From an uncultured Pelagibacteraceae bacterium (GTDB lineage: Bacteria; Pseudomonadota; Alphaproteobacteria; Pelagibacterales; AG-422-B15), in the NCBI GenBank assembly GCA_902610585.1, contig CACLWE010000001.1, positions 110,970 through 174,969 of the forward strand: a stretch of DNA of 64,000 nt, read 5' to 3'. The translations under genes were made by a program, and so were the position numbers. Positions 43,658 through 63,503 of the stretch are shown here, in pieces. The notes under the pieces are model-generated. The model saw nothing but the letters and a program-made list of their open reading frames with translations, did no database searches and was not told the origin of the DNA. Positions within the stretch are counted from its first letter, which is position 1. Each line of letters starts with the position of its first letter.

Positions 43658-44320
43658 ATGAATTCTGATATTTTTAATAACTATAATAAATTACTCCTAA
43701 GTTCTGATCTTGAAAGAATCAAAAAACTTATAGTCAGGTATAAAATTTTTGAAGAGACATTGAATGTCCCTGGGGACATAATAGAGTGTGGGGTATTTAA
43801 GGGTACAGGAATTATATATTGGTTAAAATTACTTAAGATCTTTTCTCCAAACTCAAGAAAAAAAGTTGTTGGTTTTGACTTGTTTGACGCATTTAATGAT
43901 GATCAAGCACAAGAATATGAAAAAAAGAGTATTCAAGAATTTGTTAAAGAAGCAAATTTTAGCGGTCAGGACATAGAAGAGCTTAATAAGATTGCGAATT
44001 CAATTTCTATGTCAGACAGATTTGAATTAGTAAAAGGTGACATAGTTTCTACTTCAAAAGACTATGTAAAAAATAACAGAGGATTTAAAATTTCTCTTCT
44101 GCATCTTGATCTAGATACATACAATGCAACAAAAAGTGCCCTCGAGAATTTTTTTCAATTTGTATCAAAAGGTGGCATTATATTAATAGATGAGTATGGA
44201 GAAAGAGGATGGGGCGAGAGTGAAGCTGTCGATGAATTTTTTAGAGATAAAGACATTCAAATTATAACAGTTCCTAATTCATCAAAACCCACCGCGTATA
44301 TTAAAAAAATTAATTTTTAA
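43658..44320 (+). CDS. TylF/MycF-like (macrocin-type) SAM-dependent sugar O-methyltransferase
   Basis: Contains GDIIECGVFKGTG, a HLDLDTY metal-site pattern and GGIILIDEY. Size is 220 aa. Confidence 0.75.
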   Translation: MNSDIFNNYNKLLLSSDLERIKKLIVRYKIFEETLNVPGDIIECGVFKGTGIIYWLKLLKIFSPNSRKKVVGFDLFDAFNDDQAQEYEKKSIQEFVKEANFSGQDIEELNKIANSISMSDRFELVKGDIVSTSKDYVKNNRGFKISLLHLDLDTYNATKSALENFFQFVSKGGIILIDEYGERGWGESEAVDEFFRDKDIQIITVPNSSKPTAYIKKINF

Positions 44321-44322
44321 GC

Positions 44323-45126: not shown

Positions 45127-46121
45127 GATTCTTAATTATTGGATTGGGATCAGCAGGACAAAGACACTTAAAGAATATTTATAGTATTTATCCGGGAAGT
45201 CATTGTTATGCACTTAAAAGCACAAATATTAATAAATTAATAAACCATAAAAATCAGCTTTTAATAGATAAAAGAATAGAGCATGCTTACAAAATAAAAT
45301 TTCTTAAAACAATAAACGAAGCCAAAATTATAAAGCCAAATTTTGTTATCATATCATCTGTAACATCCAAGCATCTGGAACATGTAGAGTTTCTTTTAAA
45401 GCTCGATTGTAAAATACTAATTGAAAAACCTCTTTCAAGTAATTGGCGGCATATTGATAAGTTAAAAAAAATAAAAAATATTGATAATAAGGTATTTGTA
45501 GGTTTTCAATATAGATTCCATCCAATTTTAAACAAAATTAAGAACACAATTAAAAAAAAATCATTTGGAAATTTAGTTTCTGTACATTTTTATAATGGAG
45601 AGTATCTGCCATATATGCATAAATATGAAAATTATCAAAATGGTTATGCTGCAGTTAAAAAACTAGGCGGAGGGTCATTACTTACTCAGATTCACGAGAT
45701 TGACTTAGCGCTATACTTTTTTGGCAATCCTATAAAAATTTTCTCAGTGGGAGGGAAACTGTCTAATTTGAAAATTAATGTGGAAGATTCTGTTCACCTT
45801 TTAATGGAATTCAAAAGGTTCCAGAAAAAATTCCCCACTTCAATTATATTAAATTTTTTGTCACCATTAAAAAAAGAAATAGAAATACTAAGTGATAAAT
45901 ATAAAATTACATTTAATTTTAAAGATAAGTTTTATAATTGTTATAATTTGAAAACTTTAAGAGAAAATAAAATTAAATTTAATTTTACAAGGGATGATAT
46001 GTTTATTGCAGAACTAAAGGCCTTAGTAAGTGGAAAAAATTCAAATAAATTAGTTACTTTTAATGAATCTATAGAAGGCTTAAAAATCATTAAAAGGGTA
46101 AAAAAAAATATTAGCGTTTAA
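45123..46121 (+). CDS. Gfo/Idh/MocA-family NAD(P)-dependent oxidoreductase
   Basis: Has an N-terminal Rossmann motif FLIIGLGSAGQRH and the EKP motif (LIEKPLS). It has an ATGA overlap with the upstream gene. Confidence 0.75.
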   Translation: MRFLIIGLGSAGQRHLKNIYSIYPGSHCYALKSTNINKLINHKNQLLIDKRIEHAYKIKFLKTINEAKIIKPNFVIISSVTSKHLEHVEFLLKLDCKILIEKPLSSNWRHIDKLKKIKNIDNKVFVGFQYRFHPILNKIKNTIKKKSFGNLVSVHFYNGEYLPYMHKYENYQNGYAAVKKLGGGSLLTQIHEIDLALYFFGNPIKIFSVGGKLSNLKINVEDSVHLLMEFKRFQKKFPTSIILNFLSPLKKEIEILSDKYKITFNFKDKFYNCYNLKTLRENKIKFNFTRDDMFIAELKALVSGKNSNKLVTFNESIEGLKIIKRVKKNISV

Positions 46122-46124
46122 TCA

Positions 46125-46871
46125 ATGAAAAATATTAAAACTTTTTATGCTTTAATTCCGGCAAGAGGAGGATCAAAAGGTGTTCCTAGAAAAAATATTG
46201 TCAAAATCAATGGAAAACCTCTAATCTCATATACAATTGAGCAATCAATCAAGTCTAAACTAATTGACAAAACTTTTGTTTCAACAGATGATCCAGAAAT
46301 TGCATTGATATCAAAAAAATATGGTGCAATCGTTCCATTTAAAAGGCCAAAAAAAATATCAGGGGATTTTGCTACAGATCTTGATGTGTTCTTTAACTTT
46401 GCAAAGTTTTTAGAAAAAAATGGTGATTTGCCAGATTATTTTGTCCATTTAAGGGCAACAAATCCAATGAGAAAGTTAACCACAATTGATAAGGCCATTA
46501 AGATAATGAGACAAAATTATAGTTATGATACTCTCAGGTCTGTAAACATAGCCAGTCAATCCCCATATAAAATGTGGCTGATAAAAAATAACAATTTGGA
46601 ACAATTAATAAAATATAGAAATTCTGATAATTCTCATTCTATGCCAAGACAGTCATTACCAATCGTATATTGGCAAAATGGATATATTGATATTATTAAA
46701 TCGTCAGTGATTTTAAAAAAAAGCTCAATGACTGGTAGCAAAATATACCCATTAATAATTAGTGAAAAGATATATGAAGTTGATTATCCTGAGGACGTAA
46801 TAAAATTAGAAAAAGCTATGAAGAAAAAAAAATCCACAAGCTTGAAAAAAGGAATAAGGTATCCAGTGTGA
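46125..46871 (+). CDS. acylneuraminate-type cytidylyltransferase (CMP-ulosonic-acid synthetase, CTP_transf_3)
   Basis: Has the N-terminal signature ALIPARGGSKGVPRKN. Size is 248 aa. Confidence 0.82.
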   Translation: MKNIKTFYALIPARGGSKGVPRKNIVKINGKPLISYTIEQSIKSKLIDKTFVSTDDPEIALISKKYGAIVPFKRPKKISGDFATDLDVFFNFAKFLEKNGDLPDYFVHLRATNPMRKLTTIDKAIKIMRQNYSYDTLRSVNIASQSPYKMWLIKNNNLEQLIKYRNSDNSHSMPRQSLPIVYWQNGYIDIIKSSVILKKSSMTGSKIYPLIISEKIYEVDYPEDVIKLEKAMKKKKSTSLKKGIRYPV

Positions 46872-47683
46872 AAGGGGATAAACTGAGAAACTTCAACCTA
46901 GATGGTAAACTTATCATTTTAACAGGTGGCGCGGGTTACTTAGCTGAAGAATTTACTGAGGAAATACTTAAATTTAATGGAAGAGTTATATTAGTTGATA
47001 TTAATTTAAAACTATTAAAATTAAGAATTAAGAAATTTGAAAAAGAATATAGAAATAAAATATTTACATATAAATGTGATCTTACTTCTGAGTCGCAGGT
47101 AAAAAAAATGTTTGGGGATATTGAAAAAAAGATTGGTCTGCCTAACGTATTAATAAATAATGCCGCTTCAAATCCAACCATGATTAAATCTTCAAAAGGA
47201 AGCAATAATTTTGAGAATTTTTCAATTAACCAGTGGCAATTCGATATAGCATCTGGTCTTACCAGTGCTTTTTTATGTTCAAAATATTTCGGAAAGATAA
47301 ATACATCTCAAAATAGAGTAATACTCAATATTTCATCAGATTTAGGATTAATTGCTCCAAATCAAGGGCTTTACCAGGACAAAACAGGAAGTAACTTTAA
47401 ACCAGTAAGCTATTCAGTAGTAAAGCACGGGATTATTGGTCTTACAAAATATACAGCAACGTTTTGGAATGAAAAAAATATCAGGTGCAATGCAGTAGCG
47501 TTTGGGGGAGTTTTTAATAATCAAAACCTAAAATTTTTAAATAAAATTAAAAAACTGATTCCAATGAATAGAATGGCAAATAAATCTGAGTATAATTCGG
47601 CGATAGTATTTTTAATATCTGATGCTTCATCTTATATGAACGGATCTGTAACAGTAATTGATGGAGGAAGAACTGCTTGGTAA
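46868..47683 (+). CDS. short-chain dehydrogenase/reductase (SDR)
   Basis: Contains LTGGAGYLA (TGxxxGxG-like), NNAA and the catalytic YSVVK motif. It has a GTGA start/stop overlap. Confidence 0.8.
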   Translation: MKGDKLRNFNLDGKLIILTGGAGYLAEEFTEEILKFNGRVILVDINLKLLKLRIKKFEKEYRNKIFTYKCDLTSESQVKKMFGDIEKKIGLPNVLINNAASNPTMIKSSKGSNNFENFSINQWQFDIASGLTSAFLCSKYFGKINTSQNRVILNISSDLGLIAPNQGLYQDKTGSNFKPVSYSVVKHGIIGLTKYTATFWNEKNIRCNAVAFGGVFNNQNLKFLNKIKKLIPMNRMANKSEYNSAIVFLISDASSYMNGSVTVIDGGRTAW

Positions 47684-48531
47684 AAAAAAATTCAGAATGC
47701 TATTTATGTAAATCTAAAGATTTTAAAAAATTATTGAATTCTACTAGAGATTTAAAAGGCGTCTATCCAATTATTTGCAATAAGTGTAACCTCGTTACTC
47801 TGAATTCATTTACTCACATAAAAGAAAATCATTATGAAAATTCCGGTATTCATGGAAAAAATAAATTATCAATTTCTGATTGGATTAAACTTGCAAAAAA
47901 AGATGATGAAAGAAGATATAATTACTTAAATAAATTTATAAAAGGTAAAAAGGTACTCGATTTCGGATGCGGTGCAGGTGGTTTTTTAGCTATGTCTAAA
48001 AAGATTGCAAAATATGTAGCAGGGGTTGAACCAGAGATAAGAGTTCAAAAGTATTGGGATAGTAAAATAAATATACAACCAGAAATTGAAAAATTTAATC
48101 AAAAATTTGATTTAATTACTTGCTTCCATGTAATAGAACATGTGATGGAGCCAATAAATACAATAAAAATTTTAAAAAAATTTTTAAATAAAAATGGTAC
48201 ATTGATCATAGAAGTTCCGAATCATGAAGATGCACTATTGTCACTATACAACTCAAAGAGTTTTATTAACTCTTATTACTGGAGTCAGCACTTATATGTC
48301 TTTAATGAAAAAACACTTAAGCAGCTGATAAAAAAAACAGGTTTTAAAAATATTAATATCAAACAAATTCAAAGATACCCTTTATCAAATCATTTATACT
48401 GGCTCTCTAAAGGTCTACCAGCTGGTCAAGTACATTGGAGTTTTTTAAATGATACTGTAATTGAACAGAAATATTCACAGCAATTAGCTAGTCAAAGTAA
48501 ATGTGATACTATCCTTGCGCTTTGTAAATAA
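47677..48531 (+). CDS. class I SAM methyltransferase with an N-terminal CxxC...CxxC zinc ribbon
   Basis: Contains CYLC...CNKC, then VLDFGCGAGGF, FDLITCFHVIEHV and GTLIIEVPN motifs. It appears to use a TTG start, as there is no in-frame ATG nearby. Confidence 0.75.
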   Translation: MVKKNSECYLCKSKDFKKLLNSTRDLKGVYPIICNKCNLVTLNSFTHIKENHYENSGIHGKNKLSISDWIKLAKKDDERRYNYLNKFIKGKKVLDFGCGAGGFLAMSKKIAKYVAGVEPEIRVQKYWDSKINIQPEIEKFNQKFDLITCFHVIEHVMEPINTIKILKKFLNKNGTLIIEVPNHEDALLSLYNSKSFINSYYWSQHLYVFNEKTLKQLIKKTGFKNINIKQIQRYPLSNHLYWLSKGLPAGQVHWSFLNDTVIEQKYSQQLASQSKCDTILALCK

Positions 48532-48569
48532 ACCCTTTTTTTTAGATAAAATTAATATATTAGTTACTA

Positions 48570-49412
48570 ATGAAAAAAATATTTTTTATTGCTGAAATTG
48601 GAATTAACCATAATGGCGATTTGGATATTGCTAAAAAACTAATTGATGAGTCAGCTAAAGCAGGTTTTGACGCAGTTAAGTTTCAGAAAAGGACAATTGA
48701 TATAGTATATGATAAAGCTCTTTTAGATAGTCCAAGAGAAAGTCCTTGGGGAACAACTCAAAGAGATCAAAAAGAAGGTTTAGAGTTTTCGGAGAAAGAT
48801 TATCTCGAAATTGATAAGTACTGCAGGATGAAGAATATTGAATGGTTTGCTTCAGCATGGGATATCGAAAGTCTAGATTTTTTAGATCAGTTTAATCTTA
48901 AATTCAATAAAATTGCCTCAGCAATGATAGTTGATGAAGATTTTTTGACAGCAGTTGCGGAAAAAAAATTGCATACATTTATCTCAACTGGCATGTCCAC
49001 AATAAAAGATATTGAAAAAGCAGTTTCAATTTTCAGAAATGTGAACACTTCATTTGAGCTTATGCACTGTTTTTCCACCTATCCAATGAGGACTGAAGAT
49101 GCAAATTTATTAACCATAAAAGATATGAAAGAAAAATTTAATTGTGATGTTGGATATAGTGGACATGAAAATGGATTAGCAGTTTCATATGCCGCTTCAA
49201 TGCTTGGAATTTCCTCATTAGAAAGACATGTAACTCTTGATAGGACTATGTATGGATCAGATCAAGCAGCCTCCATTGAACCCAGAGGAATGCAAGAACT
49301 TATATCTGTAATTAATAAAATGTATATTGCTCTTGGAAAAATAAAGACGGGAGAAATATTGAAAGATGAAATTGCAATTGCAGAAAAATTAAGGGCTCAT
49401 ATTAAGAGATAG
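48570..49412 (+). CDS. NeuB-family sialic/ulosonic-acid synthase, catalytic barrel only (no C-terminal SAF domain)
   Basis: Contains FFIAEIGINHNGDLDIAKKLID.AK.AGFDAVKFQ, STGMS, GYSGHENG and LERHVT motifs. At 280 aa it is much shorter than the ~340-350 aa of canonical NeuB. Confidence 0.85.
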   Translation: MKKIFFIAEIGINHNGDLDIAKKLIDESAKAGFDAVKFQKRTIDIVYDKALLDSPRESPWGTTQRDQKEGLEFSEKDYLEIDKYCRMKNIEWFASAWDIESLDFLDQFNLKFNKIASAMIVDEDFLTAVAEKKLHTFISTGMSTIKDIEKAVSIFRNVNTSFELMHCFSTYPMRTEDANLLTIKDMKEKFNCDVGYSGHENGLAVSYAASMLGISSLERHVTLDRTMYGSDQAASIEPRGMQELISVINKMYIALGKIKTGEILKDEIAIAEKLRAHIKR

Positions 49413-49423
49413 AATCTATCCAG

Positions 49424-49753
49424 ATGAAAAAAATTTGCTTTGATTTAGATGGAGTAATTTGTAGTAACACATATGGTGAATACGATAAAGCCAAACCTAT
49501 TCCAAAAGCTATACAAAAAATTAATAGGCTATATGAAGAGGGAAATGAAATAATCATTTTTACAGCAAGATTCATGGGAAGGACAGGTGGCGATTTTAAA
49601 AAATCCTATGAATTTGGATTTGATCAGGCAAAATCTCAAATAGACTCTTGGGGATTAAAATATCATCAACTGAAATTGGGAAAACCTGAGTATGATATTA
49701 TTGTTGATGATAAAGGATTTGGATATAGTGAGAAATGGATTGATGAATTATGA
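49424..49753 (+). CDS. minimal capless HAD-superfamily phosphatase-like protein (109 aa)
   Basis: All four HAD motifs are present in order: FDLDGVI (I), IIIFTAR (II), KLGKP (III) and IIVDDKG (IV). Confidence 0.6.
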   Translation: MKKICFDLDGVICSNTYGEYDKAKPIPKAIQKINRLYEEGNEIIIFTARFMGRTGGDFKKSYEFGFDQAKSQIDSWGLKYHQLKLGKPEYDIIVDDKGFGYSEKWIDEL

Positions 49754-49783
49754 AACACTTATTTATAATTTTTGTATAATGTT

Positions 49784-50779
49784 ATGAAGATACTCGTTAC
49801 AGGAAGTGGTGGATTTATAGGTTTTCACTTATCTAAGTACCTTCTTGACAAAAATCATACGGTCTTTGGATATGATAATATGAACTCTTACTATGATGTA
49901 AAATTAAAAAGAGATAGAATTAAAATTTTATCAAAAAGCAAAAAAAAATTCATTTTTACTAAAGGTAATTTGGAAGATTTTAAAAAATTAGATAATGTAG
50001 TAAAAAAAAATAAAATAAAAATAATTGTTCATCTAGCTGCCCAAGCCGGTGTAAGGCATTCTGTCCAGAATCCGAGAGATTATTTTAATAGTAATATTAA
50101 AGGATTTTTCAATATATTAGAAACTTCTAAAATCAATAAAATTGAGCATCTTCTATTTGCATCTACTAGTTCAGTGTACGGTGATGGAAAAAATTTTCCA
50201 CTTAAAGAAACTGAAAATACCGATCATCCATTGTCTTTTTATGCTGCAACCAAAAAAAGTAATGAAGTAATGGCGTATGCTTATAGTCACATATACAATT
50301 TACCAGCTACAGGATTAAGATTCTTTACAGTATATGGCCCTTACGGTCGGCCTGATATGGCGTTATTTAAATTTATTAAAAATATGATGATGAAAAGACC
50401 TATTGAGTTATATAATAAAGGAAATCATATTCGAGATTTCACTTATGTGGATGATGTAGTTGTTTCAATATCGAAGCTTATAAATAAACCTCCAGTTAAG
50501 AAAGTGCCATATGATGTTTTTAATATAGCTGGTAATGAGCCTAGGCACCTAAAGGAATTTTTACGTATTATAGAGAAATATTTAAATATCAAACCAAAAG
50601 TTAAGCTTTTAAAGATGCAAATTGGAGACGTACATAAAACAGATGCTAATGTAAATAAACTTATTAATAAAATAAAATTCAAACCAAAAATAAAAGCTGA
50701 AGAAGGAATATCGAAGTTTATCGATTGGTATAAAAATCAATTCAATCAAGAAAGTAAAAAAAATGAAAATAGTTGTTGA
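49784..50779 (+). CDS. NAD-dependent nucleotide-sugar epimerase, UDP-glucuronate 4-epimerase-like
   Basis: Contains MKILVTGSGGFIGFHL, DN.NSYYDV.LK, YAATKKSNE (YxxxK) and RFFTVYGPYGRPDMA motifs. I prefer the ATG at 49784. Confidence 0.82.
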   Translation: MKILVTGSGGFIGFHLSKYLLDKNHTVFGYDNMNSYYDVKLKRDRIKILSKSKKKFIFTKGNLEDFKKLDNVVKKNKIKIIVHLAAQAGVRHSVQNPRDYFNSNIKGFFNILETSKINKIEHLLFASTSSVYGDGKNFPLKETENTDHPLSFYAATKKSNEVMAYAYSHIYNLPATGLRFFTVYGPYGRPDMALFKFIKNMMMKRPIELYNKGNHIRDFTYVDDVVVSISKLINKPPVKKVPYDVFNIAGNEPRHLKEFLRIIEKYLNIKPKVKLLKMQIGDVHKTDANVNKLINKIKFKPKIKAEEGISKFIDWYKNQFNQESKKNENSC

Positions 50780-51488
50780 TCTTTTTAACCAACATTCAGG
50801 AAATTTCTCAGAATTAAAGAGATTATCTAGTTTAGCATTTATTAATGGTGCTGATGTAGCAAAAATACAAATTTTAAACTCAGAGAGGATCTGGGGCGAT
50901 AAATCTAGAGAATATCTAGAACTTGATTATTACCAGGTAGAAGAAATATTTGATCATTGCAAAAAAGTTGGAATAGAGTTTTTAGCTACGGTCTTTACAG
51001 CTGAACATTTAGAATGGTTAGATAAACTTGGTATTGATAAATATAAAATTGCAAGTGTCACATCCAGCTTTAAAACTCAGAGTCCTGAAGATGATAAAGC
51101 ATTATGTAGAGAAATCATTGAAAGAAAAAAAGAAACCTATTTATCTCTTGGCTTTCAGAGTCCTAATGATTTTCCTTTTGGACTGAAAAGTCATATTAAG
51201 TATTTATTCTGTATTCCAAAATATCCTACCTTACTTGATGATGAAGACTTAATTAATTTTCCTGATAAATTTTCTTCTCAAGGATATTATGGTTACAGTG
51301 ATCACACATTGGGACTTGCAGCAGGCATTAAAGCATACATGAACGGATCCCAGATCATTGAAAAGCATTTTACATTTTCAAATTCATATCAAAAAACAAA
51401 TGAAAAAGGTCATTTATGCTCTTTTAATCCAGAAAGCTTAAGAGTATTTAGAAAAATCATCACTGAATTGTCTATTTTAAATCAATAA
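50763..51488 (+). CDS. second, divergent NeuB-family synthase-like protein, SAF-less (241 aa)
   Basis: Contains FNQHSGNFSELKRL...GADVAKIQ, GIEFLATVFT...YKIASVT, YGYSDHTLG and IEKHFT motifs. Both His-containing metal motifs are retained. Confidence 0.7.
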   Translation: MKIVVDLFNQHSGNFSELKRLSSLAFINGADVAKIQILNSERIWGDKSREYLELDYYQVEEIFDHCKKVGIEFLATVFTAEHLEWLDKLGIDKYKIASVTSSFKTQSPEDDKALCREIIERKKETYLSLGFQSPNDFPFGLKSHIKYLFCIPKYPTLLDDEDLINFPDKFSSQGYYGYSDHTLGLAAGIKAYMNGSQIIEKHFTFSNSYQKTNEKGHLCSFNPESLRVFRKIITELSILNQ

Positions 51489-51510
51489 ATATCTAATATC
51501 GAAGGGAATT

Positions 51511-52755
51511 ATGGAAATCTCAGTAATCGTCACAAGTTATAATTATGATCTTTACATAGAAACTTGTCTTCGAAGTTTAATAAATCAGTCATTTAATAAA
51601 GAAAAATATGAAATTATTGTTGTAGACGATTGTTCAACTGACAATACAAAAAAAATTTTAGATTATTTTAAAGACATTAAAAATTTAAGAATAATTAGAA
51701 ATAAAAAAAATTTAGGCGTAGCTGAGTCATCAAATATTGGAATAAGAGCTGCACTTGGTAAATATATTATCAGAGTTGATGCAGATGATTATGTAAATGA
51801 GGAATTTTTATATCAACTTCATTTATTTTATCGATACAACTCACAAGCTTTTGGAGTAGCCTGCGATTATATATATGTTAATAACAATGGGACTAAATTA
51901 AAACGCGTCTCTGCGAAAGAGGTACCAGTTTCATGTGGTATCATGTATTCAAAAGACAAACTTGTTAAGAATGGTCTTTATAAGAGATCTTGGCGTCATA
52001 GAGAAGAAGAAGAGCTAAGAAAAAGAATTGGAGAGGATTATAAGATCGAATATCTTTCGATGCCTTTATACAGATATAGAATGCATAAGAGTAATAAAAC
52101 TAAACAACTCAAAAATATGCGTTCATTCAAACAAAAATTAAGCAAAAGTCTAAGATTAAAAAAATCAGCTGGGCATACCGTAGTTGTTATTCCTGCAAGA
52201 AAAAATTCAAAAAGATTAAAAAATAAAAATAAAACATTATTGTGGGGTGAGCCATTAATTAGTTGGTCAATTAAAGCTGCAATGAATGCAGAGTATGTTG
52301 ATGCTGTATTTGTCTCAAGCGATTGCCACACCATTCTAGAAATTGCAAAAGAATTGGGGGCCTCAGTTATAAAACGACCTGCAAGCTTAAGTCTTAATAG
52401 TATTCCAAAACAAAAAGTTATAGAACATGCTATCAAATATATTGAAAAGAAAAAGAATTTAAAAGCTAAAGTAGTAGTGAGTTTACAGCCTAATTCACCT
52501 GAAGTCACATCTCAAGATATTAATAATTGTATAGAGATGTTAGTAAAAAATAGGAATAATGAAGTAATGTCTGTTGATGAGGACGGAAAACAAAATGCTG
52601 CAATCAGGGTTATGAAGTATGAAACTGTTTTTGATAGAAAGTTGAGTACATACTTTCAAGTATACACTAAAAATATTATTGATGTTCATACTTACCACGA
52701 TATTCAAATTCTTGAAAACAGAAACCAGATTTCTAAAGATGTTGAAGAAATATAG
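51511..52755 (+). CDS. fusion protein: N-terminal GT2 glycosyltransferase + C-terminal CMP-sugar cytidylyltransferase (CTP_transf_3) domain
   Basis: The N-terminal part has ISVIVTSYNYDLYIETCLRSLINQS, VVDDCSTDNT and RVDADD (DxD). From about residue 222 it reads VVVIPARKNSKRLKNKN, followed by a NeuA/KdsB-like core. The ORF is a continuous 414 aa. Confidence 0.8.
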   Translation: MEISVIVTSYNYDLYIETCLRSLINQSFNKEKYEIIVVDDCSTDNTKKILDYFKDIKNLRIIRNKKNLGVAESSNIGIRAALGKYIIRVDADDYVNEEFLYQLHLFYRYNSQAFGVACDYIYVNNNGTKLKRVSAKEVPVSCGIMYSKDKLVKNGLYKRSWRHREEEELRKRIGEDYKIEYLSMPLYRYRMHKSNKTKQLKNMRSFKQKLSKSLRLKKSAGHTVVVIPARKNSKRLKNKNKTLLWGEPLISWSIKAAMNAEYVDAVFVSSDCHTILEIAKELGASVIKRPASLSLNSIPKQKVIEHAIKYIEKKKNLKAKVVVSLQPNSPEVTSQDINNCIEMLVKNRNNEVMSVDEDGKQNAAIRVMKYETVFDRKLSTYFQVYTKNIIDVHTYHDIQILENRNQISKDVEEI

Positions 52756-52761
52756 TTTTAT

Positions 52762-54498
52762 ATGTGTGGCTTTTCAGTAATCTTAAATTCCAATAAAAAT
52801 AAGTCAGAACAATTAAAATTAATTAAAGAAATGAATCGTTCTATTCAGAATAGAGGACCAGATCATTCAGGAGTCTATAATGATGAGTATATCATCTTGG
52901 GTCATCAAAGGTTGTCAATTATTGATTTAAGCAGCGCCTCTAACCAACCAATGATTAATAATGAGTATGTGATTGTTTTCAATGGTGAAATTTATAATTT
53001 TAAAGATATAAGATCTGAATTGATTTCTGTTCACAATGAGAAGTTCGAGACTCATGGCGATACTGAGGTGCTACTTAAATCATATAAATATTGGGGTAAA
53101 GATTGTCTAAAAAAACTAAATGGTATTTTTTCATTTGCGATATGGAATCGAAAAAAGAAAGAACTATTTTGCGCCAGAGACAGATTTGGTGTTAAACCAA
53201 TTTATTATGCTTTTCAAAATGATGGAGAATTTATTTGTTCATCAGAAGTCAAAGGAATTTTTGCTTACGGTAAAAAAAAATCACCTAATTACAATACATT
53301 AAAGCATTATTTAATTCAGGGTGTTTATGGGTATAATGGACAAACTTTCTTTGAAGATATTTTTCAGTTACAAGCTGGGCATTATCTATACCTCAATAGT
53401 AATAATCAAATTACAGTGGAGAAATACTATCAGCTTGAGGATAGTATTAAAAACTCAACAAAATACAAAAGTGAAATGGAGGCATACGAGGAATATTCAA
53501 AATTAATTAATGATAGTATTCAATTACAACTTGTAAGTGATGTAAATTTAGGGGTAACACTTAGTAGTGGTTTAGACTCTTCTATATTATTTTCTCATGC
53601 ATTAGCAAACACAAATAAAAATGATCTTACAGCCTATACTTATACGTTTAATGATAGTAAATATGACGAGTCAATATATGTTAAGGACTGGGTTGCAGAA
53701 AATAAATGGAGAAAGATTTCTTGTGGTGGATCTGATTTTTTTGATGATATAAAAAAATTAATCATTAATCAATGTGAGCCAATAGGCGGCTTATCATTAC
53801 TTGGTGTTTCAGAGATATTTAAAACAGGACGTACACTTGATGATACAATTGTATATTTGTGCGGTGAAGGAATTGATGAGCAATGGTGCGGTTATGATTA
53901 CTATCAAGAGGCAAAAAAAACGAATTTACAGAATATTAGTATGATTCAGGGAACTAATAGTGCCATTAATAAAGGAATTCTTCATGAAGACTTTAAACAA
54001 TTTTATGAGAAAATAATATTTCCCACTCCATTTGAAACAAATATTGATAATCTAAAATTTAGAGACTTATTTCTCACAAAGGTACCTCGAAATTTAGGAT
54101 TTCTTGATAGAATTAGCATGCTCTATAGTGTTGAAGCAAGAGTTCCATTTTTAGATCATAGACTTGTTGAAGCTAGTTTTCGGTTACCTGAAAAATTTAT
54201 GTTAAAAAAAAATCAAGGTAAATATTTACTAAGAGATTGGTACAGTCAAAAACTTCCTAATTATGCAACTAGAAAAACTAAGCAATTTATTCAAAGTCCA
54301 CAAAGAGAATGGCTTGGAAATAGTGAGTATATCGAAGATATGATAAGTTCCAAAAGTTTCAAAGAGAGATCAATTTTTAATAATAAAGAGGTTAAAAAAT
54401 CCTTTAAAAGGTATAAAAATGGAGTCTTTGATAATTCCTTTTTTATATGGCAATGGCTTAATATAGAAATCTGGTTTCAAACAATTATTGAAAATTAA
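52762..54498 (+). CDS. asparagine synthetase B-type glutamine amidotransferase (sugar/carboxylate amidotransferase candidate)
   Basis: Has the N-terminal nucleophile in MCGF and a GHQRLSI.D motif. The PP-loop variant reads LSSGLDSS. Size is 578 aa. Confidence 0.85.
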   Translation: MCGFSVILNSNKNKSEQLKLIKEMNRSIQNRGPDHSGVYNDEYIILGHQRLSIIDLSSASNQPMINNEYVIVFNGEIYNFKDIRSELISVHNEKFETHGDTEVLLKSYKYWGKDCLKKLNGIFSFAIWNRKKKELFCARDRFGVKPIYYAFQNDGEFICSSEVKGIFAYGKKKSPNYNTLKHYLIQGVYGYNGQTFFEDIFQLQAGHYLYLNSNNQITVEKYYQLEDSIKNSTKYKSEMEAYEEYSKLINDSIQLQLVSDVNLGVTLSSGLDSSILFSHALANTNKNDLTAYTYTFNDSKYDESIYVKDWVAENKWRKISCGGSDFFDDIKKLIINQCEPIGGLSLLGVSEIFKTGRTLDDTIVYLCGEGIDEQWCGYDYYQEAKKTNLQNISMIQGTNSAINKGILHEDFKQFYEKIIFPTPFETNIDNLKFRDLFLTKVPRNLGFLDRISMLYSVEARVPFLDHRLVEASFRLPEKFMLKKNQGKYLLRDWYSQKLPNYATRKTKQFIQSPQREWLGNSEYIEDMISSKSFKERSIFNNKEVKKSFKRYKNGVFDNSFFIWQWLNIEIWFQTIIEN

Positions 54499-55844: not shown

Positions 55845-57131
55845 ATGAAGACTGGGTTTGTAATAGAATCTCAAAGTGAATACCGCCAATTGGGACCTCT
55901 TATTGATGAACTTTTACTTAATAAAGAAGATGTTTATATCTTTATAAATAGTGGTTTTTACTCTCTTTTAATGAAAAATTCAATTAGGCCCTGGTTAGTG
56001 CCCAATCAAGAAAACGTTCCAAATTTTATGAACGGGAAACCAATGATAGTTTTTACTCAAGATGAAAAAGATATTTGTGAGAAAATATGTAATACAAAAC
56101 CTGACCAATTATTTTTTCATTCAGGTGTTCACCCAGATAGTAATCTTGTTTTTCGACCAAGAAAGTATATTCAATATTTAAAACAAGAACTCAATAGAAA
56201 AACAAAATTTTACAGTTTTGCTGGAGAGTATTACGATAGTGCACTCTGGGGATTAGAAGCAATTCAAGGATTCGATAATATATTTATTATCAATGAACAT
56301 GCTAAAAAAGTTCAGTTTGATATTTTAAATAAAAGAAATTATGAAAAACAAGACATTAAAAATTCATTTAATAAATTAGTAGTTAGTGGGAAACCAGTTT
56401 TAGACCATATTATAAATCAAAAAATACCTGATTTAAAAGACTCAGTTATATTAATGACTCACAACTTCTCAAACAGTCAGTTTAGTAGAATTTGCTTTGC
56501 AAATAATAAATATATACAACTTCTTAAAATCTTTATAAAGGAAGACAAATTTGATTATAAGACCTTATCTCACTTATTCAAAAACACTTCATATAAAGAC
56601 ATTATTTCAACGATTTATAAATCATCAAAAGGATCAAAACTTAACTTCATTATACAATCAAGAGCAAAAGACTCTCAAAATAAAGTGTATCAAAATTTTT
56701 ACGCCCTAAATAGCGATATTTATAATTTAGATGGGAATAAAATACCGTATCCAAATATTAATACGCACCAAATGATTATGAATTCGAAAAAACTTATTGC
56801 TTTTAAATCGTTTTCTTTCATTGAAGCAGTGATTTCAAAAACTAAGGCGCTTCACTTAGAAATACCGACTGAGAATGCTTTCCATAAGATTGATAAGTAT
56901 AATATTTTCAATAAGTCAGTGAGAGGATGTGATCAAGGATCTCTAAATAATTACAAGAGTTGTATTCAAAGTATTAAATGGCATAATTTAAAAAAAATAG
57001 AGCAATTTATTGAAAAAGATGAACCAATTTTAGAGCATGATAGAAATGAATATTTGGAGAAATACGTTTACCCTCCTAATTTTGACACGTCAAGTGAGTT
57101 CATTTATAAAACCATTTTGGAAAATCACTAA
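55845..57131 (+). CDS. hypothetical protein (428 aa), possible GT-B-fold glycosyl/phosphoglycosyl-transferase-like
   Basis: A long ORF with no motif I can name. The C-terminal half has a Rossmann-like alternation and an S.S..EA pattern (KSFSFIEAVISKTKAL). A decayed paralogue fragment lies at 54513. Confidence 0.55.
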   Translation: MKTGFVIESQSEYRQLGPLIDELLLNKEDVYIFINSGFYSLLMKNSIRPWLVPNQENVPNFMNGKPMIVFTQDEKDICEKICNTKPDQLFFHSGVHPDSNLVFRPRKYIQYLKQELNRKTKFYSFAGEYYDSALWGLEAIQGFDNIFIINEHAKKVQFDILNKRNYEKQDIKNSFNKLVVSGKPVLDHIINQKIPDLKDSVILMTHNFSNSQFSRICFANNKYIQLLKIFIKEDKFDYKTLSHLFKNTSYKDIISTIYKSSKGSKLNFIIQSRAKDSQNKVYQNFYALNSDIYNLDGNKIPYPNINTHQMIMNSKKLIAFKSFSFIEAVISKTKALHLEIPTENAFHKIDKYNIFNKSVRGCDQGSLNNYKSCIQSIKWHNLKKIEQFIEKDEPILEHDRNEYLEKYVYPPNFDTSSEFIYKTILENH

Positions 57132-57151: not shown

Positions 57152-57817
57152 ATGGGTGACTCAAATAAAATTATATTGCCGTTTCAAAAAAAAGTTGTTG
57201 ACCAATTTTTGAAGAATAAAGATTCTGATGAAATTAATAAAATAGCATTTCTAGGTAGCAGAAAACACAACTTAGAATTTAGTAATACAGTTGAAAGCTA
57301 TTGTAAAATGAAATTTAATGCAAATCATATTGATACATATGACATATTAGATGATGGTTGGGATTTAAATAATGACTGGAATATCAAAGGCTATGACTTA
57401 GTTATTTGTCTTAGAGCAACTCCATTTATTAAGTCAAAGAATCATTTTTTTACTCAATTGAAGGCTTGCTGCGATGATAACAAAAGAGTTTTATTTGATT
57501 TTACGATATATTCTGGAAGTATTTCTAAAAATAATGATGATGAATTTAAATCATTAATACCACCATTTAGCAATCGTGTAAGATTGCCTCCCCATAAACT
57601 AGAGACATTGAGTTATGATTTTAGAAATCAAATAAGCAAAATATTACAATATAGATTAATTTTATTTTACGGAATGGGTCTTAAATATCTTAAAAATGAA
57701 ATGATTAATAGTTTTAATTATGAAGACTTAGTAAATAGCAGCTTAGTTCCAAAAAACTCCATTTACTATTTTAATCATATAAAACGTGATTTATTAGCAT
57801 TTTTATATTGGGATTAA
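57152..57817 (+). CDS. hypothetical protein (221 aa)
   Basis: An ORF with a plausible start 20 nt after the upstream stop. It shows weak Rossmann-like strand patterns (KIAFLGS...YDLVICLR) but no SAM-binding glycine motif. Confidence 0.5.
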   Translation: MGDSNKIILPFQKKVVDQFLKNKDSDEINKIAFLGSRKHNLEFSNTVESYCKMKFNANHIDTYDILDDGWDLNNDWNIKGYDLVICLRATPFIKSKNHFFTQLKACCDDNKRVLFDFTIYSGSISKNNDDEFKSLIPPFSNRVRLPPHKLETLSYDFRNQISKILQYRLILFYGMGLKYLKNEMINSFNYEDLVNSSLVPKNSIYYFNHIKRDLLAFLYWD

Positions 57818-59201: not shown

Positions 59202-60944
59202 ATGTCTTCTTCTTTAAAAAAAATTTTTAGTATCTTAAATTTCAGTCAAAAAAGAAAAGTACTAATTTTGTTTATTGCAATGGTCATTGTAATTTTTTTT
59301 GAAATGCTAAGTTTAGCTGCCGTAATTCCATTTATTGCTGTAGTCCTGGGCGAAAGTGAATCTTATTTTTTTTCTAATGTTTTTATGCAAGATTTTTATT
59401 CTTTATATAATAAAAATCAGATTATTTATTTTTGTAGCATATTATTACTTAGCGCTTTTTTAATAAAGGCAACTCTCTTAATATTTTTAACCTGGCTTCA
59501 ATCAAAATTTATCGTTTCTTTGAGAAATGAATTATCTGAAGTTCTTTTTGATTATTACATGAAATATCAACCATTTTTAAGTCATGTTATGAGAAGTTCA
59601 CCGGAACTTATTAGGAATATCAATTCTTATGTAACAGCTGCTATTCAAGGATATTTAAACAGTCTTCTATTATATATTTTAGAGGCCTTTATAATTGCAA
59701 GCATCTGTTTATTTTTATTAATTTATGAGCCTGTAGGATTTTTTATAAGTTTATTTGTATTTGGAATATCAGTTTCCTGTTATTATTTGTACACTAGAAA
59801 AAAATTCACTTATTGGAGCGAGGGCCAGCTTCATCATGATAAACTTCGACTTAAAGCGCTATTTGAAGGTTTGCAAGCAATTAAAGAAATTAGAATTTTA
59901 AGAAGACAAGAAAAGTTTATTAATTCATTTATATATAATCAGGAAAAAAGCCTGGAAATAGGAATTAATCTTATTGTTTTCAACGCAATTCCAAGAATTG
60001 CACTAGAATTTTTAGCTGTATTTGCCATGTCAGTTATGGTGATTTATTTAAATTTAAGAGGATTTGATAACTCTCAAATTATTACGACATTAGGTTTATT
60101 TGCTGTCGCAGCTTTTAGAACGATGCCAGGACTAAATAAATTAACAGTTAATCTACAAAACATGAAATATGGTGCAGTGCATGTAGATTTCCTCTACGAA
60201 GAAATATCTAATTTAAACAATGAGATAAATAATGAGAAAATTAATTATTCAGAATTTAAAGACAAAAAAATTAATTCATTCAAAGAAATTCAAATTTCAA
60301 ATATCAGGTTCAAATATAAAAGAGATAAAGAATTAAAAACACTCAACGATATATCTTTTAGTATTAAAAAAAATGAAACAATTGGAATAATTGGTCCTAG
60401 TGGCTCGGGTAAAAGTACACTTATAAATTTAATAATGGGGCTATTTAGCCCTGACGAGGGTGAGATTTTTTTAGATGGAGTGAATATAAATCATGTTAAA
60501 GAATCTTATCAAAAATTAATTGGCTATGTGTCTCAAAATATTTATTTATCTGATGATACAATCAGAAACAATATAGCTTTTGGTATCAATCCAAAAAATA
60601 TAGATAATGAGAAGATATTGAAGGTAATCAAATTAGCATCCTTAGAAGAGTTTGTTGGCTCTTTACCAGATAGAGAAAATACTATTGTTGGTGAAACAGG
60701 AGCAAGAATATCAGGTGGTGAGAAACAAAGAATTGGTATTGCACGAGCCCTTTACAATGATCCAAAATTATTAGTTCTTGATGAAGCCACCAGTTCCCTG
60801 GATACGATTACTGAAGAAAATATTATCTCAAGTGTTATCAATAATTTTAAAGGCAAGATTACTATGATAATCATTTCACATCGTAAGTCTCCAATTAAAG
60901 ACTGTGACAAAATAATTGACTTAGAAAAAATATCCAAATTGTGA
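59202..60944 (+). CDS. fused TMD-NBD ABC exporter (MsbA/PglK-type half transporter)
   Basis: Six N-terminal TM helices precede Walker A GPSGSGKST, signature ISGGEKQRIGIARA and Walker B LLVLDEATSSLD. Size is 580 aa. Confidence 0.9.
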   Translation: MSSSLKKIFSILNFSQKRKVLILFIAMVIVIFFEMLSLAAVIPFIAVVLGESESYFFSNVFMQDFYSLYNKNQIIYFCSILLLSAFLIKATLLIFLTWLQSKFIVSLRNELSEVLFDYYMKYQPFLSHVMRSSPELIRNINSYVTAAIQGYLNSLLLYILEAFIIASICLFLLIYEPVGFFISLFVFGISVSCYYLYTRKKFTYWSEGQLHHDKLRLKALFEGLQAIKEIRILRRQEKFINSFIYNQEKSLEIGINLIVFNAIPRIALEFLAVFAMSVMVIYLNLRGFDNSQIITTLGLFAVAAFRTMPGLNKLTVNLQNMKYGAVHVDFLYEEISNLNNEINNEKINYSEFKDKKINSFKEIQISNIRFKYKRDKELKTLNDISFSIKKNETIGIIGPSGSGKSTLINLIMGLFSPDEGEIFLDGVNINHVKESYQKLIGYVSQNIYLSDDTIRNNIAFGINPKNIDNEKILKVIKLASLEEFVGSLPDRENTIVGETGARISGGEKQRIGIARALYNDPKLLVLDEATSSLDTITEENIISSVINNFKGKITMIIISHRKSPIKDCDKIIDLEKISKL

Positions 60945-60960
60945 TATACAAAACTATTAA

Positions 60961-61974
60961 ATGATTTTCAATCCTTTCTCTAAAATATTTATGCACATGG
61001 AAAATAGTGGATGGGTACTTACAAGAGAAGCTGAAGCAGTAAAAAAAATATTAAAACAAATAAACATACCGCTTACAAATATACCAGTCAGACAGGTATG
61101 TTATTTACCTGATAAATACTATGCCATTAATCAAAGTCAATTCCATTTACTTGGAAACAGACAAGTTTTTGACTATTTTCACGGCATACCATCTGTTTCT
61201 CCTCAATTCTCAGAATTATTTAAGTCTCTCAAATTAAAAAAAAATAATTTTGCAAAAATTAGAGTTTCTAATAATTTAGTAAAAAATTTTTTTTTAAATG
61301 AAGGATTTTCTGAAAAAATTTCTATGATACCAATTGGTATTGACTTGAGTTTTTTTAGTAATATTGAAAAAAAAGAAAGTACTAAATTAAGAATTGCTTA
61401 TGATATTCCATTAAGTTCGGTGGTAGTAGGTTCATTTCAGAAAGATGGCGTAGGTTGGGGTGAAGGGAATGAACCAAAATTAATAAAAGGTCCTGACATT
61501 TTTTTGAAAACCATAGAGTTACTTAAAGAAGATATTACAGAGTTGTACGTATTATTAACGGGCCCATCTAGGGGTTATATGAAGAAAGGTCTAGCAAAGC
61601 TTAATATTCCTTATAAACATATCTATTTAAAAGATTATAGAGAAATCTCTAAATTTTATTCAATGCTTGATTTGTATTTAATTTCCTCAAGAGAAGAAGG
61701 TGGCCCAAAGTCAGTTTTAGAGTCAATGGCATCAGGTATACCAATTGTATCTACTCCTGTAGGGCAGGCATTTGATATGATAACAAATGATGTCAATGGT
61801 TATTCAAGTGAAACTTGGGACCCAGATGAATTAAAAACATTATCTTTAAAAGCAATAAATAAAAAAAACGACTTTAATAAAAATTCTAGACAAACTGCTG
61901 AACAATATGATTATTTTAAGCAGCAAGGTTTATGGAGAGATTTTTTTAATGATATTATGAAAAAAAATGACTAG
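60961..61974 (+). CDS. GT4-type (GT-B, retaining) glycosyltransferase family 1
   Basis: Has the C-terminal EX7E region SSREEGGPKSVLESMASGIPIVSTPVG. Confidence 0.8.
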   Translation: MIFNPFSKIFMHMENSGWVLTREAEAVKKILKQINIPLTNIPVRQVCYLPDKYYAINQSQFHLLGNRQVFDYFHGIPSVSPQFSELFKSLKLKKNNFAKIRVSNNLVKNFFLNEGFSEKISMIPIGIDLSFFSNIEKKESTKLRIAYDIPLSSVVVGSFQKDGVGWGEGNEPKLIKGPDIFLKTIELLKEDITELYVLLTGPSRGYMKKGLAKLNIPYKHIYLKDYREISKFYSMLDLYLISSREEGGPKSVLESMASGIPIVSTPVGQAFDMITNDVNGYSSETWDPDELKTLSLKAINKKNDFNKNSRQTAEQYDYFKQQGLWRDFFNDIMKKND

Positions 61975-62713
61975 TAAGAAAATTATTGCTTTAAGGATGG
62001 ATGATGTAGGAGCATCAACAAAAAAATATGAAGTTTATTCAAAAAAACTTTTCGGTAATTTTTTATTTCTTAAACGTTTAAAGTATTTTAAAGCTTGGGG
62101 TCCTTATAGAGAACTAAATGAATTTGAATGGAATGATATTCTAAAATTATTATATAATTTTAATTGTAAATTAACTGTAGGGGTAACTGCTGGGTGGGTT
62201 GAAAGAAATGGAGAAATTGTACCGTTTAATAAAAAGTTTCCAAATTTATTAGGTGTAATCAAAGAAGGAGTTGAGAGTGGTTTATTAGAAATTGCAAATC
62301 ATGGTTTAACCCATTGTATAGTAGGTAAACATTTACCTAAATATTTTAAGTCAAATAGGTTTTATCACAGAGAATTTTACGATTTTTTACCAGAGAAGGT
62401 TCATTTTGAACATATTAAAATTTCACAACAAATATTACATGATACATTTGGAAAATCGATTACAACTCTTATTCCTCCTGGAAATGTATATTCTGCGAAA
62501 ACTGTGAGAAGTATGAGAAATAATCGAATTAAGGTACTAAACTCATCAATAAAGATACCTGAAATTGATGATCAGGAATATATCAATGAAGAACAAGTAA
62601 TTGCCTTCCATGATCGTGAATTAGTTATATATGGAATTGAATGGTTGAAAAATTTAGTTAAAAATATTGCCGAAGAAAATGAATTTAGATTTATAAAAGA
62701 GTTAAAAAAATAA
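61967..62713 (+). CDS. polysaccharide-deacetylase-like (CE4/DUF2334-like) protein
   Basis: Contains ALRMDDVGAS (a TFDD-like motif), ANHGLTHC (His motif) and LIPPGN. The assignment is moderate. Confidence 0.5.
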   Translation: MTSKKIIALRMDDVGASTKKYEVYSKKLFGNFLFLKRLKYFKAWGPYRELNEFEWNDILKLLYNFNCKLTVGVTAGWVERNGEIVPFNKKFPNLLGVIKEGVESGLLEIANHGLTHCIVGKHLPKYFKSNRFYHREFYDFLPEKVHFEHIKISQQILHDTFGKSITTLIPPGNVYSAKTVRSMRNNRIKVLNSSIKIPEIDDQEYINEEQVIAFHDRELVIYGIEWLKNLVKNIAEENEFRFIKELKK

Positions 62714-62867
62714 ATTTTGTTAATCTTATAATTGTATTGATAGTTAAACTAATTTATAAAATAATGGCAATCAATTACATTGGATGTAAGTAAAAGTGGG
62801 TATTCCAAACAATAAAATTACTTTCTTATATTGGGAAAATTTAAATTAATTATTTTAGAAATAGTTT

Positions 62868-63503
62868 ATGAGTAGTATTAGACGTGACTTACTTGATAAG
62901 ATTCTTAAAAAAAATATTCATTTATTCACTGGAAAAGTATTAGATGTTGGTGGTAAAAAGATTGGTAAAAGAGGCAAATTCATTCCCCCAATTAAAAACA
63001 TTGAGCGGTGGGAATATCTTAATACTGATGAGAAAACAAATCCTGATTTTTTAGCTGATATTTGTTCAATGCCTTTTGAAGACGATTCCTATGATGTATT
63101 ATTGGTTACTGAAGTATTAGAGTATATAAAAGAACCTGTAAAAGCGGTTCAAGAATGCTATCGAGTATTAAAAAAAGGGGGTAATCTAATTATATCTGTA
63201 CCTTTCATGCACCCAATGCACTACGATGCTGATTTTGATATGCAAAGATTTACTCAAATATATCTTAGAAATATATTGAGTAACTGCTCATTTTCAGAAA
63301 TTAATTTTTATGAGATGGGATCGGTAGGAGCAGTTCTATTTGATTTCTTAAATATTGCCACTTCATATGCAAGTAAAAATAAAAAAAGTTACTTAAATAT
63401 GCTATTACAAAGATCAAAATTTATTTTCTTATTAATTGATAAATATACACCCCACCAAAAAAAGTACATAAATACTGGATATTTTATCGTTATAAAAAAA
63501 TGA
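62868..63503 (+). CDS. class I SAM-dependent methyltransferase
   Basis: Contains VLDVGGKK, DVLLVTEVLEYI and LKKGGNLIISVP motifs. Size is 211 aa. Confidence 0.7.
   Translation: MSSIRRDLLDKILKKNIHLFTGKVLDVGGKKIGKRGKFIPPIKNIERWEYLNTDEKTNPDFLADICSMPFEDDSYDVLLVTEVLEYIKEPVKAVQECYRVLKKGGNLIISVPFMHPMHYDADFDMQRFTQIYLRNILSNCSFSEINFYEMGSVGAVLFDFLNIATSYASKNKKSYLNMLLQRSKFIFLLIDKYTPHQKKYINTGYFIVIKK

Follow-up and report, generated by a model that had tools for sequence, protein, structure and literature searches.

A family 2 glycosyltransferase fused to a minimal cytidylyltransferase in a conserved three-enzyme sugar-acid cassette

To our knowledge, every known NeuB-dependent bacterial route that starts from a nucleoside diphosphate (NDP)-sugar has a dedicated sugar-releasing enzyme, either PseG or NeuC/LegG. 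PseG and NeuC are metal-independent and have GT-B/epimerase folds; PseG is a GT-B glycosyltransferase homologue that proved to be a uridine diphosphate (UDP)-sugar hydrolase. Bifunctional enzymes are also known from sialic acid metabolism, such as animal GNE, which combines a hydrolysing epimerase with a kinase, and engineered fusions of a cytidine monophosphate (CMP)-Neu5Ac synthetase with a sialyltransferase. Here we describe a natural fusion in a stretch of DNA of 64,000 nucleotides (hereafter the window) from an uncultured Pelagibacteraceae bacterium. A single open reading frame (ORF), the second of two genes that an earlier note on this DNA had treated together as 50763-52755, joins a family 2 glycosyltransferase (GT2) domain to a cytidylyltransferase domain of the CTP_transf_3 family and follows a short NeuB-like gene. 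It embodies the same idea as GNE and the engineered enzymes, with release or activation fused to a neighbouring step, but its domains and partners differ.

Other described systems resemble parts of this locus. In the Bacillus subtilis sps operon, the GT2 protein SpsA is encoded beside the NeuB-type SpsE and the CTP_transf_3-type SpsF (SpsC-G being CMP-legionaminic acid genes), but SpsA is only 18-19% identical to our GT2 domain by structural alignment and is not fused, and the operon has its own PseG-like SpsG. The likeness that we propose to PseG and NeuC/LegG would be a functional analogy, that of a glycosyltransferase-like protein encoded in an operon just before the synthase; there is no relationship of sequence or fold, the GT2 domain being a GT-A protein with a DXD motif. 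The nearest solved structure is PDB 6P61 (45% identity, E 4e-52; TM-score 0.92-0.94 by Foldseek), a structural-genomics entry for a 228-residue 'glycosyltransferase' of Leptospira borgpetersenii that has the RVDADD and YRYRxH motifs in common with the GT2 domain. This protein is stand-alone rather than fused, and its partners are a full-length NeuB with a SAF domain and an ordinary cytidylyltransferase of ~230 residues. Around its orthologue in L. idonii (89% identity), the gene order is MarR-type regulator, epimerase, iron-dependent alcohol dehydrogenase (Fe-ADH), GT2, NeuB and cytidylyltransferase. Literature searches returned no paper or function for 6P61, no functional study of the fusion or of the stand-alone GT2 subfamily, no characterised natural enzyme combining GT2 and CTP_transf_3 domains, and nothing on a GT2, NeuB and cytidylyltransferase unit in SAR11 or elsewhere.

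The fusion and its relatives

The fusion ORF, at 51511..52755 on the forward strand, is genuine and widespread in nature, and it unites two members of a conserved three-enzyme cassette. It begins with ATG, encodes 414 residues and has no stop codon between its domains, which bears out the single uninterrupted reading frame described in the earlier note. PF00535 (Glycos_transf_2) matches residues 4-132 (E 4.1e-31, 108.6 bits against a cut-off of 23.3), and PF02348 (CTP_transf_3) matches residues 224-383 (E 3.3e-21, 76.5 bits against a cut-off of 22.6), both scores greatly exceeding those expected by chance. The two motifs that the note had read in the translation, VVDDCSTDNT and DADD, are present at residues 37-46 and 90-93, respectively. 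Its placement of the cytidylyltransferase start near residue 222 (about nucleotide 52170) was close, as VVVIPARKNSKRLKNKN lies at residues 224-240, about nucleotide 52180. The ORF is part of a tightly packed run of genes, at 49772-54498:

49772..50779, forward strand: NAD-dependent nucleotide-sugar epimerase (PF01370, E 4e-55; NCBIfam TviC-type match, 137 bits)
50763..51488, forward strand: minimal NeuB-type phosphoenolpyruvate (PEP)-condensing synthase, 241 residues (PF03102, E 1e-27)
51511..52125, forward strand: GT2 (GT-A fold) domain of the fusion, residues 1-205 (PF00535, E 4e-31)
52108..52176, forward strand: basic helical linker of the fusion, residues ~200-222 (KQLKNMRSFKQKLSKSLRLKKSAGH; helix 200-220 in the AlphaFold2 model)
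52177..52755, forward strand: minimal CTP_transf_3 (CMP-ulosonate synthetase-type) domain of the fusion, residues 223-414 (PF02348, E 3e-21)
52762..54498, forward strand: AsnB-family glutamine-dependent amidotransferase (TIGR01536, 370.7 bits against a cut-off of 267.1)

The stop codon of the epimerase gene overlaps the NeuB-like start by 17 nucleotides, 22 nucleotides separate the NeuB-like stop from the fusion start, and the AsnB-type gene begins 6 nucleotides past the fusion stop.

A search of 5.8 billion proteins yielded 1036 relatives of the fusion, the best 120 of which were inspected for domains. All 120 (45-96% identity) contained both PF00535 and PF02348, the architecture that the note had proposed to look for, and all save one 279-residue fragment were 405-433 residues long. 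Fused relatives were drawn from NCBI, JGI, ENA, TARA and Logan assemblies and included a protein of the cultured Ca. Pelagibacter sp. HIMB1509; at the species level, the nearest relatives were Pelagibacteraceae. An independent Logan contig (L092) encodes a copy with 96% identity in the gene order of the window (HAD, epimerase, short NeuB, fusion and AsnB), and copies with 67-68% identity on ENA contigs retain the pair of short NeuB and fusion in a rearranged neighbourhood. An alignment of 24 homologues (A1) showed conservation across both domains. A look-up of the exact protein sequence returned no record. Public databases already contain the fusion architecture, with generic names only: a 'glycosyltransferase family 2 protein' in Ca. 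Pelagibacter communis and an 'acylneuraminate cytidylyltransferase' in Ca. Magnetomorum.

There is only a negligible chance that an assembly error or a frameshift has joined two separate genes into this ORF. Orthologues with a stop codon between the domains, which the earlier note would have taken as a sign of such an artefact, do exist in Chloroflexi, Patescibacteria, Myxococcota and some Pelagibacteraceae, including one single-cell genome (L038). However, the same fused ORF recurs in many independent assemblies, not only in the close copies above but also at 45-55% identity, and its linker can be aligned among the fused homologues. We therefore reject the artefact and regard the split orthologues as a natural alternative arrangement rather than as evidence of an assembly error in the window. 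The stop and start codons of the split orthologues fall in the linker region (residues ~200-222), a segment that differs in length among homologues.

A conserved triad with minimal enzymes

To define the distribution of the cassette, one genome per species (GTDB) was scanned, and the ORFs of 80 retrieved loci were searched with domain profiles from the 24-homologue alignment. A GT2 of this subfamily, a NeuB-type protein and a CTP_transf_3 domain were found within 6 kb in 68 of the 80 loci, fused in 11 and split in 57; several of the 12 loci without the full triad were cut by contig ends. The triad takes four arrangements:

Fused, GT2::CTP with a short NeuB: Pelagibacteraceae, Magnetomorum
Split minimal, with GT2 (~220 residues), minimal CTP (~195 residues) and short NeuB (~243 residues) as three adjacent genes in variable order: Chloroflexi, Patescibacteria/Magasanikbacteria, Myxococcota, Lysobacterales
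CTP::2-hydroxyacid dehydrogenase with GT2 and a short NeuB: SAR86, Halobacteriovorax, some Pelagibacteraceae
Full-length, with a more distant GT2, NeuB with SAF and an ordinary cytidylyltransferase: Ilumatobacteraceae, Roseateles, Synechococcus, Leptospira

The short NeuB adjoins the GT2/CTP genes in most related loci, and the full-length arrangement is usually preceded by genes for an Fe-ADH and a LegC/PseC-like aminotransferase. The NeuB-like gene and the fusion thus form one functional unit, as the earlier note had put it, and the triad is conserved across phyla; the note's phrase 'synthase/activator/transferase unit' presupposes that the CMP-activated acid is what the GT2 domain transfers. 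Taken together, we read these loci as encoding a pathway for a sialic-acid-like sugar in which the GT-A partner is obligatory and uncharacterised.

Two members of the triad differ from their classical relatives in similar ways. The C-terminal domain of the fusion has in common with NeuA, PseF, LegF and KdsB the fold, the cytidine triphosphate (CTP)-binding loop (IPARxxSKRLxxKN), the QxxSP motif and a C-terminal acidic motif. The CTP-binding residues, whose absence the earlier note had named as a reason for doubt, are retained: I227-P-A-R230, S233, R235 and K239-N240 are invariant in the 24-homologue alignment, and the domain also carries Q326-x-N-S-P330 and D391-x-H393. Unlike these enzymes, the domain is fused to a GT2, falls under every equivalog cut-off and has no RQ arm. 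In NeuA-type structures, the RQ-motif insertion forms an arm for dimerisation and sugar binding that reaches into the sugar site of the partner subunit; here ~45 residues containing this arm are deleted (alignment A4), as judged against a 248-residue PseF-like enzyme also encoded in the window and the enzyme of a related locus (L063), both with R-Q-S/D-L. The best NCBIfam match was PseF (87.1 bits against a cut-off of 205.7), and KdsB models gave 31-58 bits against cut-offs of 155-281 (31.5 against 155.2 in one case). The best structural matches were CMP-Neu5Ac and CMP-Pse synthetases, with 6IFD (Vibrio cholerae CMP-Neu5Ac synthetase, 28-32% identity over its chains), 9FTC and 1QWJ as the best solved relatives.

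The 241-residue protein encoded upstream is, as previously described, a divergent NeuB that keeps both metal-binding histidines, in GYSDH(181) and EKH(202) (PF03102, 97.6 bits against a cut-off of 22.1). It shares with NeuB, PseI and LegI a TIM-barrel core and the KxQ, KIAS, S-x-G, YP, GYSDH and EKH motifs, and K34, Q36, K95, S128, Y154/P155, S179, H181, E200 and H202 are invariant in an alignment with full-length NeuB and PseI (A2). In contrast to those enzymes, it has no SAF domain, ending ~80 residues before they do (the profile covers positions 70-252 of 329), a loop of ~22 residues is deleted and the N-terminal motif is altered; its scores lie under the equivalog cut-offs (NeuB_NnaA, 83.7 against 399.65 bits; PseI, 69.4 against 340.25 bits). 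None of the GT2 domain, the CTP_transf_3 domain and the short NeuB reaches any named-enzyme threshold. The short NeuB and the C-terminal domain are therefore stripped-down enzymes that lack the trans-acting substrate lids (SAF domain and RQ arm) of their classical relatives.

The minimal cytidylyltransferase domain is a fusion hub. The same arm-less domain is fused elsewhere to S-adenosylmethionine (SAM) methyltransferases, to a GSCFA-family domain and to D-2-hydroxyacid (phosphoglycerate) dehydrogenase, in relatives P0250, P0256, P0259, P0285, P0355 and P0279 and in loci L048, L053, L055, L057, L063, L066 and L079. One further locus (L089) encodes a NeuB::CTP_transf_3 fusion of 584 residues.

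Several loci placed the triad in other settings. A compact operon of Fe-ADH, LegC/PseC-like aminotransferase, GT2, NeuB (with SAF) and cytidylyltransferase was seen in L058, L062, L064, L068, L070, L075, L078 and L080 (Ilumatobacteraceae), in L087 (L. idonii) and in L089. In some cases, genes for an HpcH aldolase, a Gfo/Idh/MocA protein and an IMPase-like phosphatase precede it and a LIC12162-family transferase gene follows it; the operon probably represents an undescribed amino sugar-acid pathway. On one JGI contig (Ga0366829_1000062; L001/L002), the fusion and short NeuB lie beside B12-binding radical SAM enzymes and near a PEP-mutase::nucleotidyltransferase protein and a thiamine pyrophosphate enzyme, that is, in a phosphonate biosynthesis neighbourhood. 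In L001-L004 and L087, the pair is preceded by a gene for a small MarR-family exopolysaccharide regulator (TIGR04176).

Role of the GT2 domain

With ~205 residues, the GT2 domain forms a complete, minimal GT-A unit and carries no extra acceptor or membrane module. D39/D40 and D90-A-D92-D93 (within R88-V-D90-A-D92-D93) are invariant in the 24 homologues, and an acidic helix, H163-R-E-E-E-E-L-R, where the catalytic base usually sits, and Y187/Y189/H192 of a Y-R-Y-R-x-H motif are invariant or nearly so. In AlphaFold2 models, the predicted local distance difference test (pLDDT) score in 10-residue blocks was 83-98 for residues 1-160 and 74-92 for residues 161-190, dropping to 56-65 in the linker helix at 200-220. 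Both domains of the whole fusion were modelled confidently (mean pLDDT 87.9), with a predicted template modelling (pTM) score of 0.57 and no confident interdomain interface, a result that neither supports nor refutes channelling between the domains.

The N-terminal domain was matched by GT2-type Pfam models only, and its NCBIfam equivalog matches were all far under cut-off (for example TuaG, 81.7 bits against 400). No Pfam match to sialyl/ulosonate transferase families (GT29, 38, 42, 52, 80, 30, 99 and 107) was found in the GT2 domain or in any ORF scanned from 38 to 63.5 kb of the window. Beyond 6P61, Foldseek matched the domain to TarS, K4CP and SpsA. A search of plasmids for annotated close homologues of the GT2 domain found none at E 1e-20 and generic GT2s of ~31% identity at E 1e-8. 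A polyprenyl-phosphate glycosyltransferase of the ArnC/DPMS type was considered and rejected, the match being weak (23 bits against 529) and the model having no transmembrane segment.

We lean, tentatively and with somewhat less than an even chance in mind, towards a role for the GT2 domain in releasing a free sugar from an NDP-sugar for NeuB, by analogy with PseG and NeuC/LegG; we consider this role at least as likely as transfer of the CMP-activated acid. The GT2 domain would handle an NDP-sugar with a divalent metal at its DXD motif and, with water as the acceptor, would free the aldose that NeuB needs, filling the PseG or NeuC/LegG step. The short NeuB would condense this aldose with PEP to a 2-keto-3-deoxy sugar acid, which the C-terminal domain would convert to its CMP ester. 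The epimerase, in relatives together with a UDP-N-acetylhexosamine dehydrogenase, would supply a UDP-(N-acetyl)hexuronic-type sugar, the AsnB-type enzyme would amidate a carboxyl group at some stage, and the CMP-sugar acid would be used by a transferase encoded elsewhere in the surrounding glycan island. Because both minimal enzymes lack the trans-acting lids, we speculate that the three activities work as one complex.

Sugar release is favoured by the lack of PseG and hydrolysing NeuC in related loci. Phmmer searches with annotated PseG and annotated NeuC matched neither the fusion nor any ORF of the window, and the PseG query found no homologue in 91 loci plus the window. Epimerase_2 proteins were present in three Chloroflexi loci only, and the two that were scanned are non-hydrolysing WecB (TIGR00236, 306-312 bits against a cut-off of 210); neither the annotated NeuC query nor the NCBIfam scan of these two proteins revealed a hydrolysing NeuC in triad loci. 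Enzymes that act at the NDP-sugar level flank the triad, including the LegC/PseC-like aminotransferase, a nucleotide-sugar dehydrogenase, WecB and an epimerase, and the order aminotransferase, GT2, NeuB and cytidylyltransferase in the compact operons puts GT2 in the usual position of PseG. We also count for sugar release the minimal size of the GT2 domain, without added modules for an acceptor or the membrane, and the fact that the second NeuB of the window (48570) has a HAD phosphatase as its partner and no GT2. Of the three parts of the triad, the GT2 domain is the best conserved, with a median identity to the window of 52% over 40 loci compared with 43% and 35% for the other two parts, a pattern that would suit a pathway enzyme with fixed substrates and would be unusual for an acceptor-specific glycosyltransferase. 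A LIC12162-family 'transferase' (TIGR04331, 129 bits) closes several compact operons, co-occurs in at least 13 loci and offers a distinct candidate for the last transfer step. PseG, described above, is a precedent for a glycosyltransferase homologue that acts as a hydrolase. Transfer of legionaminic acid (Leg) in B. subtilis does not require SpsA, the GT2 protein encoded beside the CMP-legionaminic acid genes (PMC7439481).

Several points weigh against sugar release. The fusion joins what would be steps one and three, which are not consecutive and fit a transferase better, and the modelled fusion lacks a confident interface between the two domains. NeuB could also take a sugar phosphate or another non-nucleotide aldose. 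The window's other NeuB gene set is likewise without NeuC or PseG, so that their absence is weaker evidence in this lineage. We know of no GT2 or GT-A enzyme that serves as a dedicated NDP-sugar hydrolase, and the free sugar acid, rather than an NDP-sugar, could be the substrate of the Fe-ADH and aminotransferase in the more distant operons, as it is for KdnB and KdnA in the Kdo8N pathway.

The main alternative is that the GT2 domain is an inverting transferase, which would pass the CMP-activated sugar acid made by the C-terminal domain to an acceptor, either a glycan or a lipid-linked molecule, and that the fusion channels a labile CMP donor; we regard this as possible but doubtful. The domain is fused to the activating enzyme, and fusions usually link consecutive steps; NeuB::CTP and CTP::methyltransferase fusions also exist. 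Known CMP-sugar-acid transferases use matching inverting chemistry. The pair of short NeuB and GT2::CTP moves between contexts as a two-gene unit, MsbA-type or Wzm/Wzt exporters are often encoded beside the triad, and in several Ilumatobacteraceae operons the GT2 is the sole glycosyltransferase. However, the domain has retained a canonical DXD metal site together with the catalytic helix of GT2 enzymes, features typical of enzymes with NDP-sugar donors. DXD is usually missing from the known sialyl/ulosonate transferases, which are members of other families, and SpsA, despite its position beside Leg genes, is not the Leg transferase (PMC7439481). Transfer of the acid would also leave the source of NeuB's free aldose unexplained in the absence of PseG or hydrolysing NeuC from these loci, and it sits uneasily with the co-occurrence of the LIC12162-family transferase and with a conservation of the GT2 domain across phyla that is unusually high for an acceptor-specific glycosyltransferase. 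Conceivably, and with similar doubt, the GT2 metal could bridge a phosphate and the adjacent carboxylate instead of a diphosphate, which would make this the first GT-A/DXD family-2 enzyme with a CMP-2-keto-3-deoxy sugar acid as donor.

It is unlikely that the GT2 domain is an ordinary NDP-sugar transferase for another sugar, such as galacturonic acid or N-acetylgalactosaminuronic acid provided through the epimerase and later amidated by AsnB. Such an enzyme would build the acceptor for the sugar-acid residue or glycosylate that residue, and the fusion would merely co-regulate two steps. This is the default activity of DXD-bearing GT2 enzymes, and the nearest characterised GT2 structures, namely heparosan and chondroitin synthases, TarS, TarP and RmlT, act on polymers. 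The epimerase, nucleotide-sugar dehydrogenase and AsnB-type amidotransferase also resemble a uronamide-forming trio such as WbpO/WbpP/WbpS. Yet an ordinary transferase would leave two observations unexplained. One is that 68 of 80 loci link a GT2 of this subfamily to NeuB and CTP_transf_3 in glycan contexts that differ widely, among them compact operons that are flanked by housekeeping genes and lack uronic-acid genes. The other is that GT2 is better conserved than its partners.

Genomic setting and significance

We also analysed the wider context of the fusion. A complete rRNA operon (16S, tRNA-Ile, tRNA-Ala, 23S and 5S) lies at 32745-37575, and a gene-dense surface-glycan island of more than 25 kb (38262-63503) starts just past the 5S gene. 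The left half of the window has a G+C content of ~30%, and the island one of 26-30%. This layout is that of a SAR11-type variable glycan island. Towards its right end, the island encodes:

59202..60944, forward strand: MsbA/PglK-type ATP-binding cassette exporter with fused transmembrane and nucleotide-binding domains (PF00005, E 1e-33)
60961..63503, forward strand: GT4 glycosyltransferase, polysaccharide-deacetylase-like protein and methyltransferase (Pfam)

The epimerase that opens the packed run (49772..50779) is, we infer, UDP-uronate 4-epimerase-like, and its family is also present in 19 related loci. Genes of the AsnB-type family adjoin the triad in 11 loci spanning four phyla, with representatives in Pelagibacteraceae, Patescibacteria, Magasanikbacteria and Myxococcota, and the MsbA-type exporter cluster is found in 26 related loci. 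The exporter, GT1/GT4, deacetylase-like and methyltransferase genes of 59202-63503 are common to candidate phyla radiation (CPR) and Chloroflexi loci L026, L029, L031 and L035, in which clusters c20, c42 and c41 (the GT4, deacetylase-like and methyltransferase set) co-occur. This distribution suggests that a larger glycan module has spread horizontally between the SAR11-type island and CPR/Chloroflexi.

Upstream of the fusion, the window holds a separate second sugar-acid gene set (43658-49753) with no GT2. Its first members encode a TylF-like methyltransferase, an AP_endonuc_2 TIM-barrel protein and a Gfo/Idh/MocA oxidoreductase, followed by the 248-residue PseF-like cytidylyltransferase (46125, RQ arm present), an SDR protein and a methyltransferase; the last two genes encode a 280-residue NeuB without a SAF domain (48570) and a 109-residue HAD phosphatase (49424). 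The set looks like a phosphosugar-type route, and its pairing of NeuB with an AP-endonuclease-like protein recalls the Leptospira NeuB2 fusion (PMC3438082).

Four soluble proteins of the island, at 55845-57131, 57152-57817, 57857-59011 (reverse strand) and 41132-42490 (reverse strand), had no Pfam or NCBIfam match and could be candidates for missing transferases. The first, of 428 residues, has only 4 relatives among the 5.8 billion proteins and is encoded directly 3' of the fusion in two relatives (L093/L094); its AlphaFold2 model was unusable (pLDDT 41.6). The last adjoins a tRNA-Met (cat) gene at 41043-41119, inside the island.

Sialic-acid-like sugars shape the contact of bacterial surfaces with phages, grazers and hosts, and the presumed purpose of the variable surface-glycan island in SAR11 lies in these interactions. 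The three-enzyme unit described here occurs in highly abundant and highly diverse bacteria, including SAR11, SAR86, Ilumatobacteraceae, Leptospira, Chloroflexi and Patescibacteria, with a third member annotated merely as 'glycosyltransferase'. If the GT2 domain releases the sugar, a GT-A enzyme would replace PseG or NeuC at this step, a new activity in a well-studied class of pathways. If the donor of the GT2 domain is the CMP-activated acid, the domain would be the first CMP-sugar-using GT2, likewise a new activity, and the pair would be a mobile, self-contained two-gene cassette to make, activate and attach an undescribed sugar acid that decorates the surfaces of SAR11, CPR, Chloroflexi and other bacteria. 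Either outcome would probably reveal a new sugar acid, and the solved structure 6P61, together with cultivable carriers such as Leptospira and Roseateles, makes the triad directly testable.

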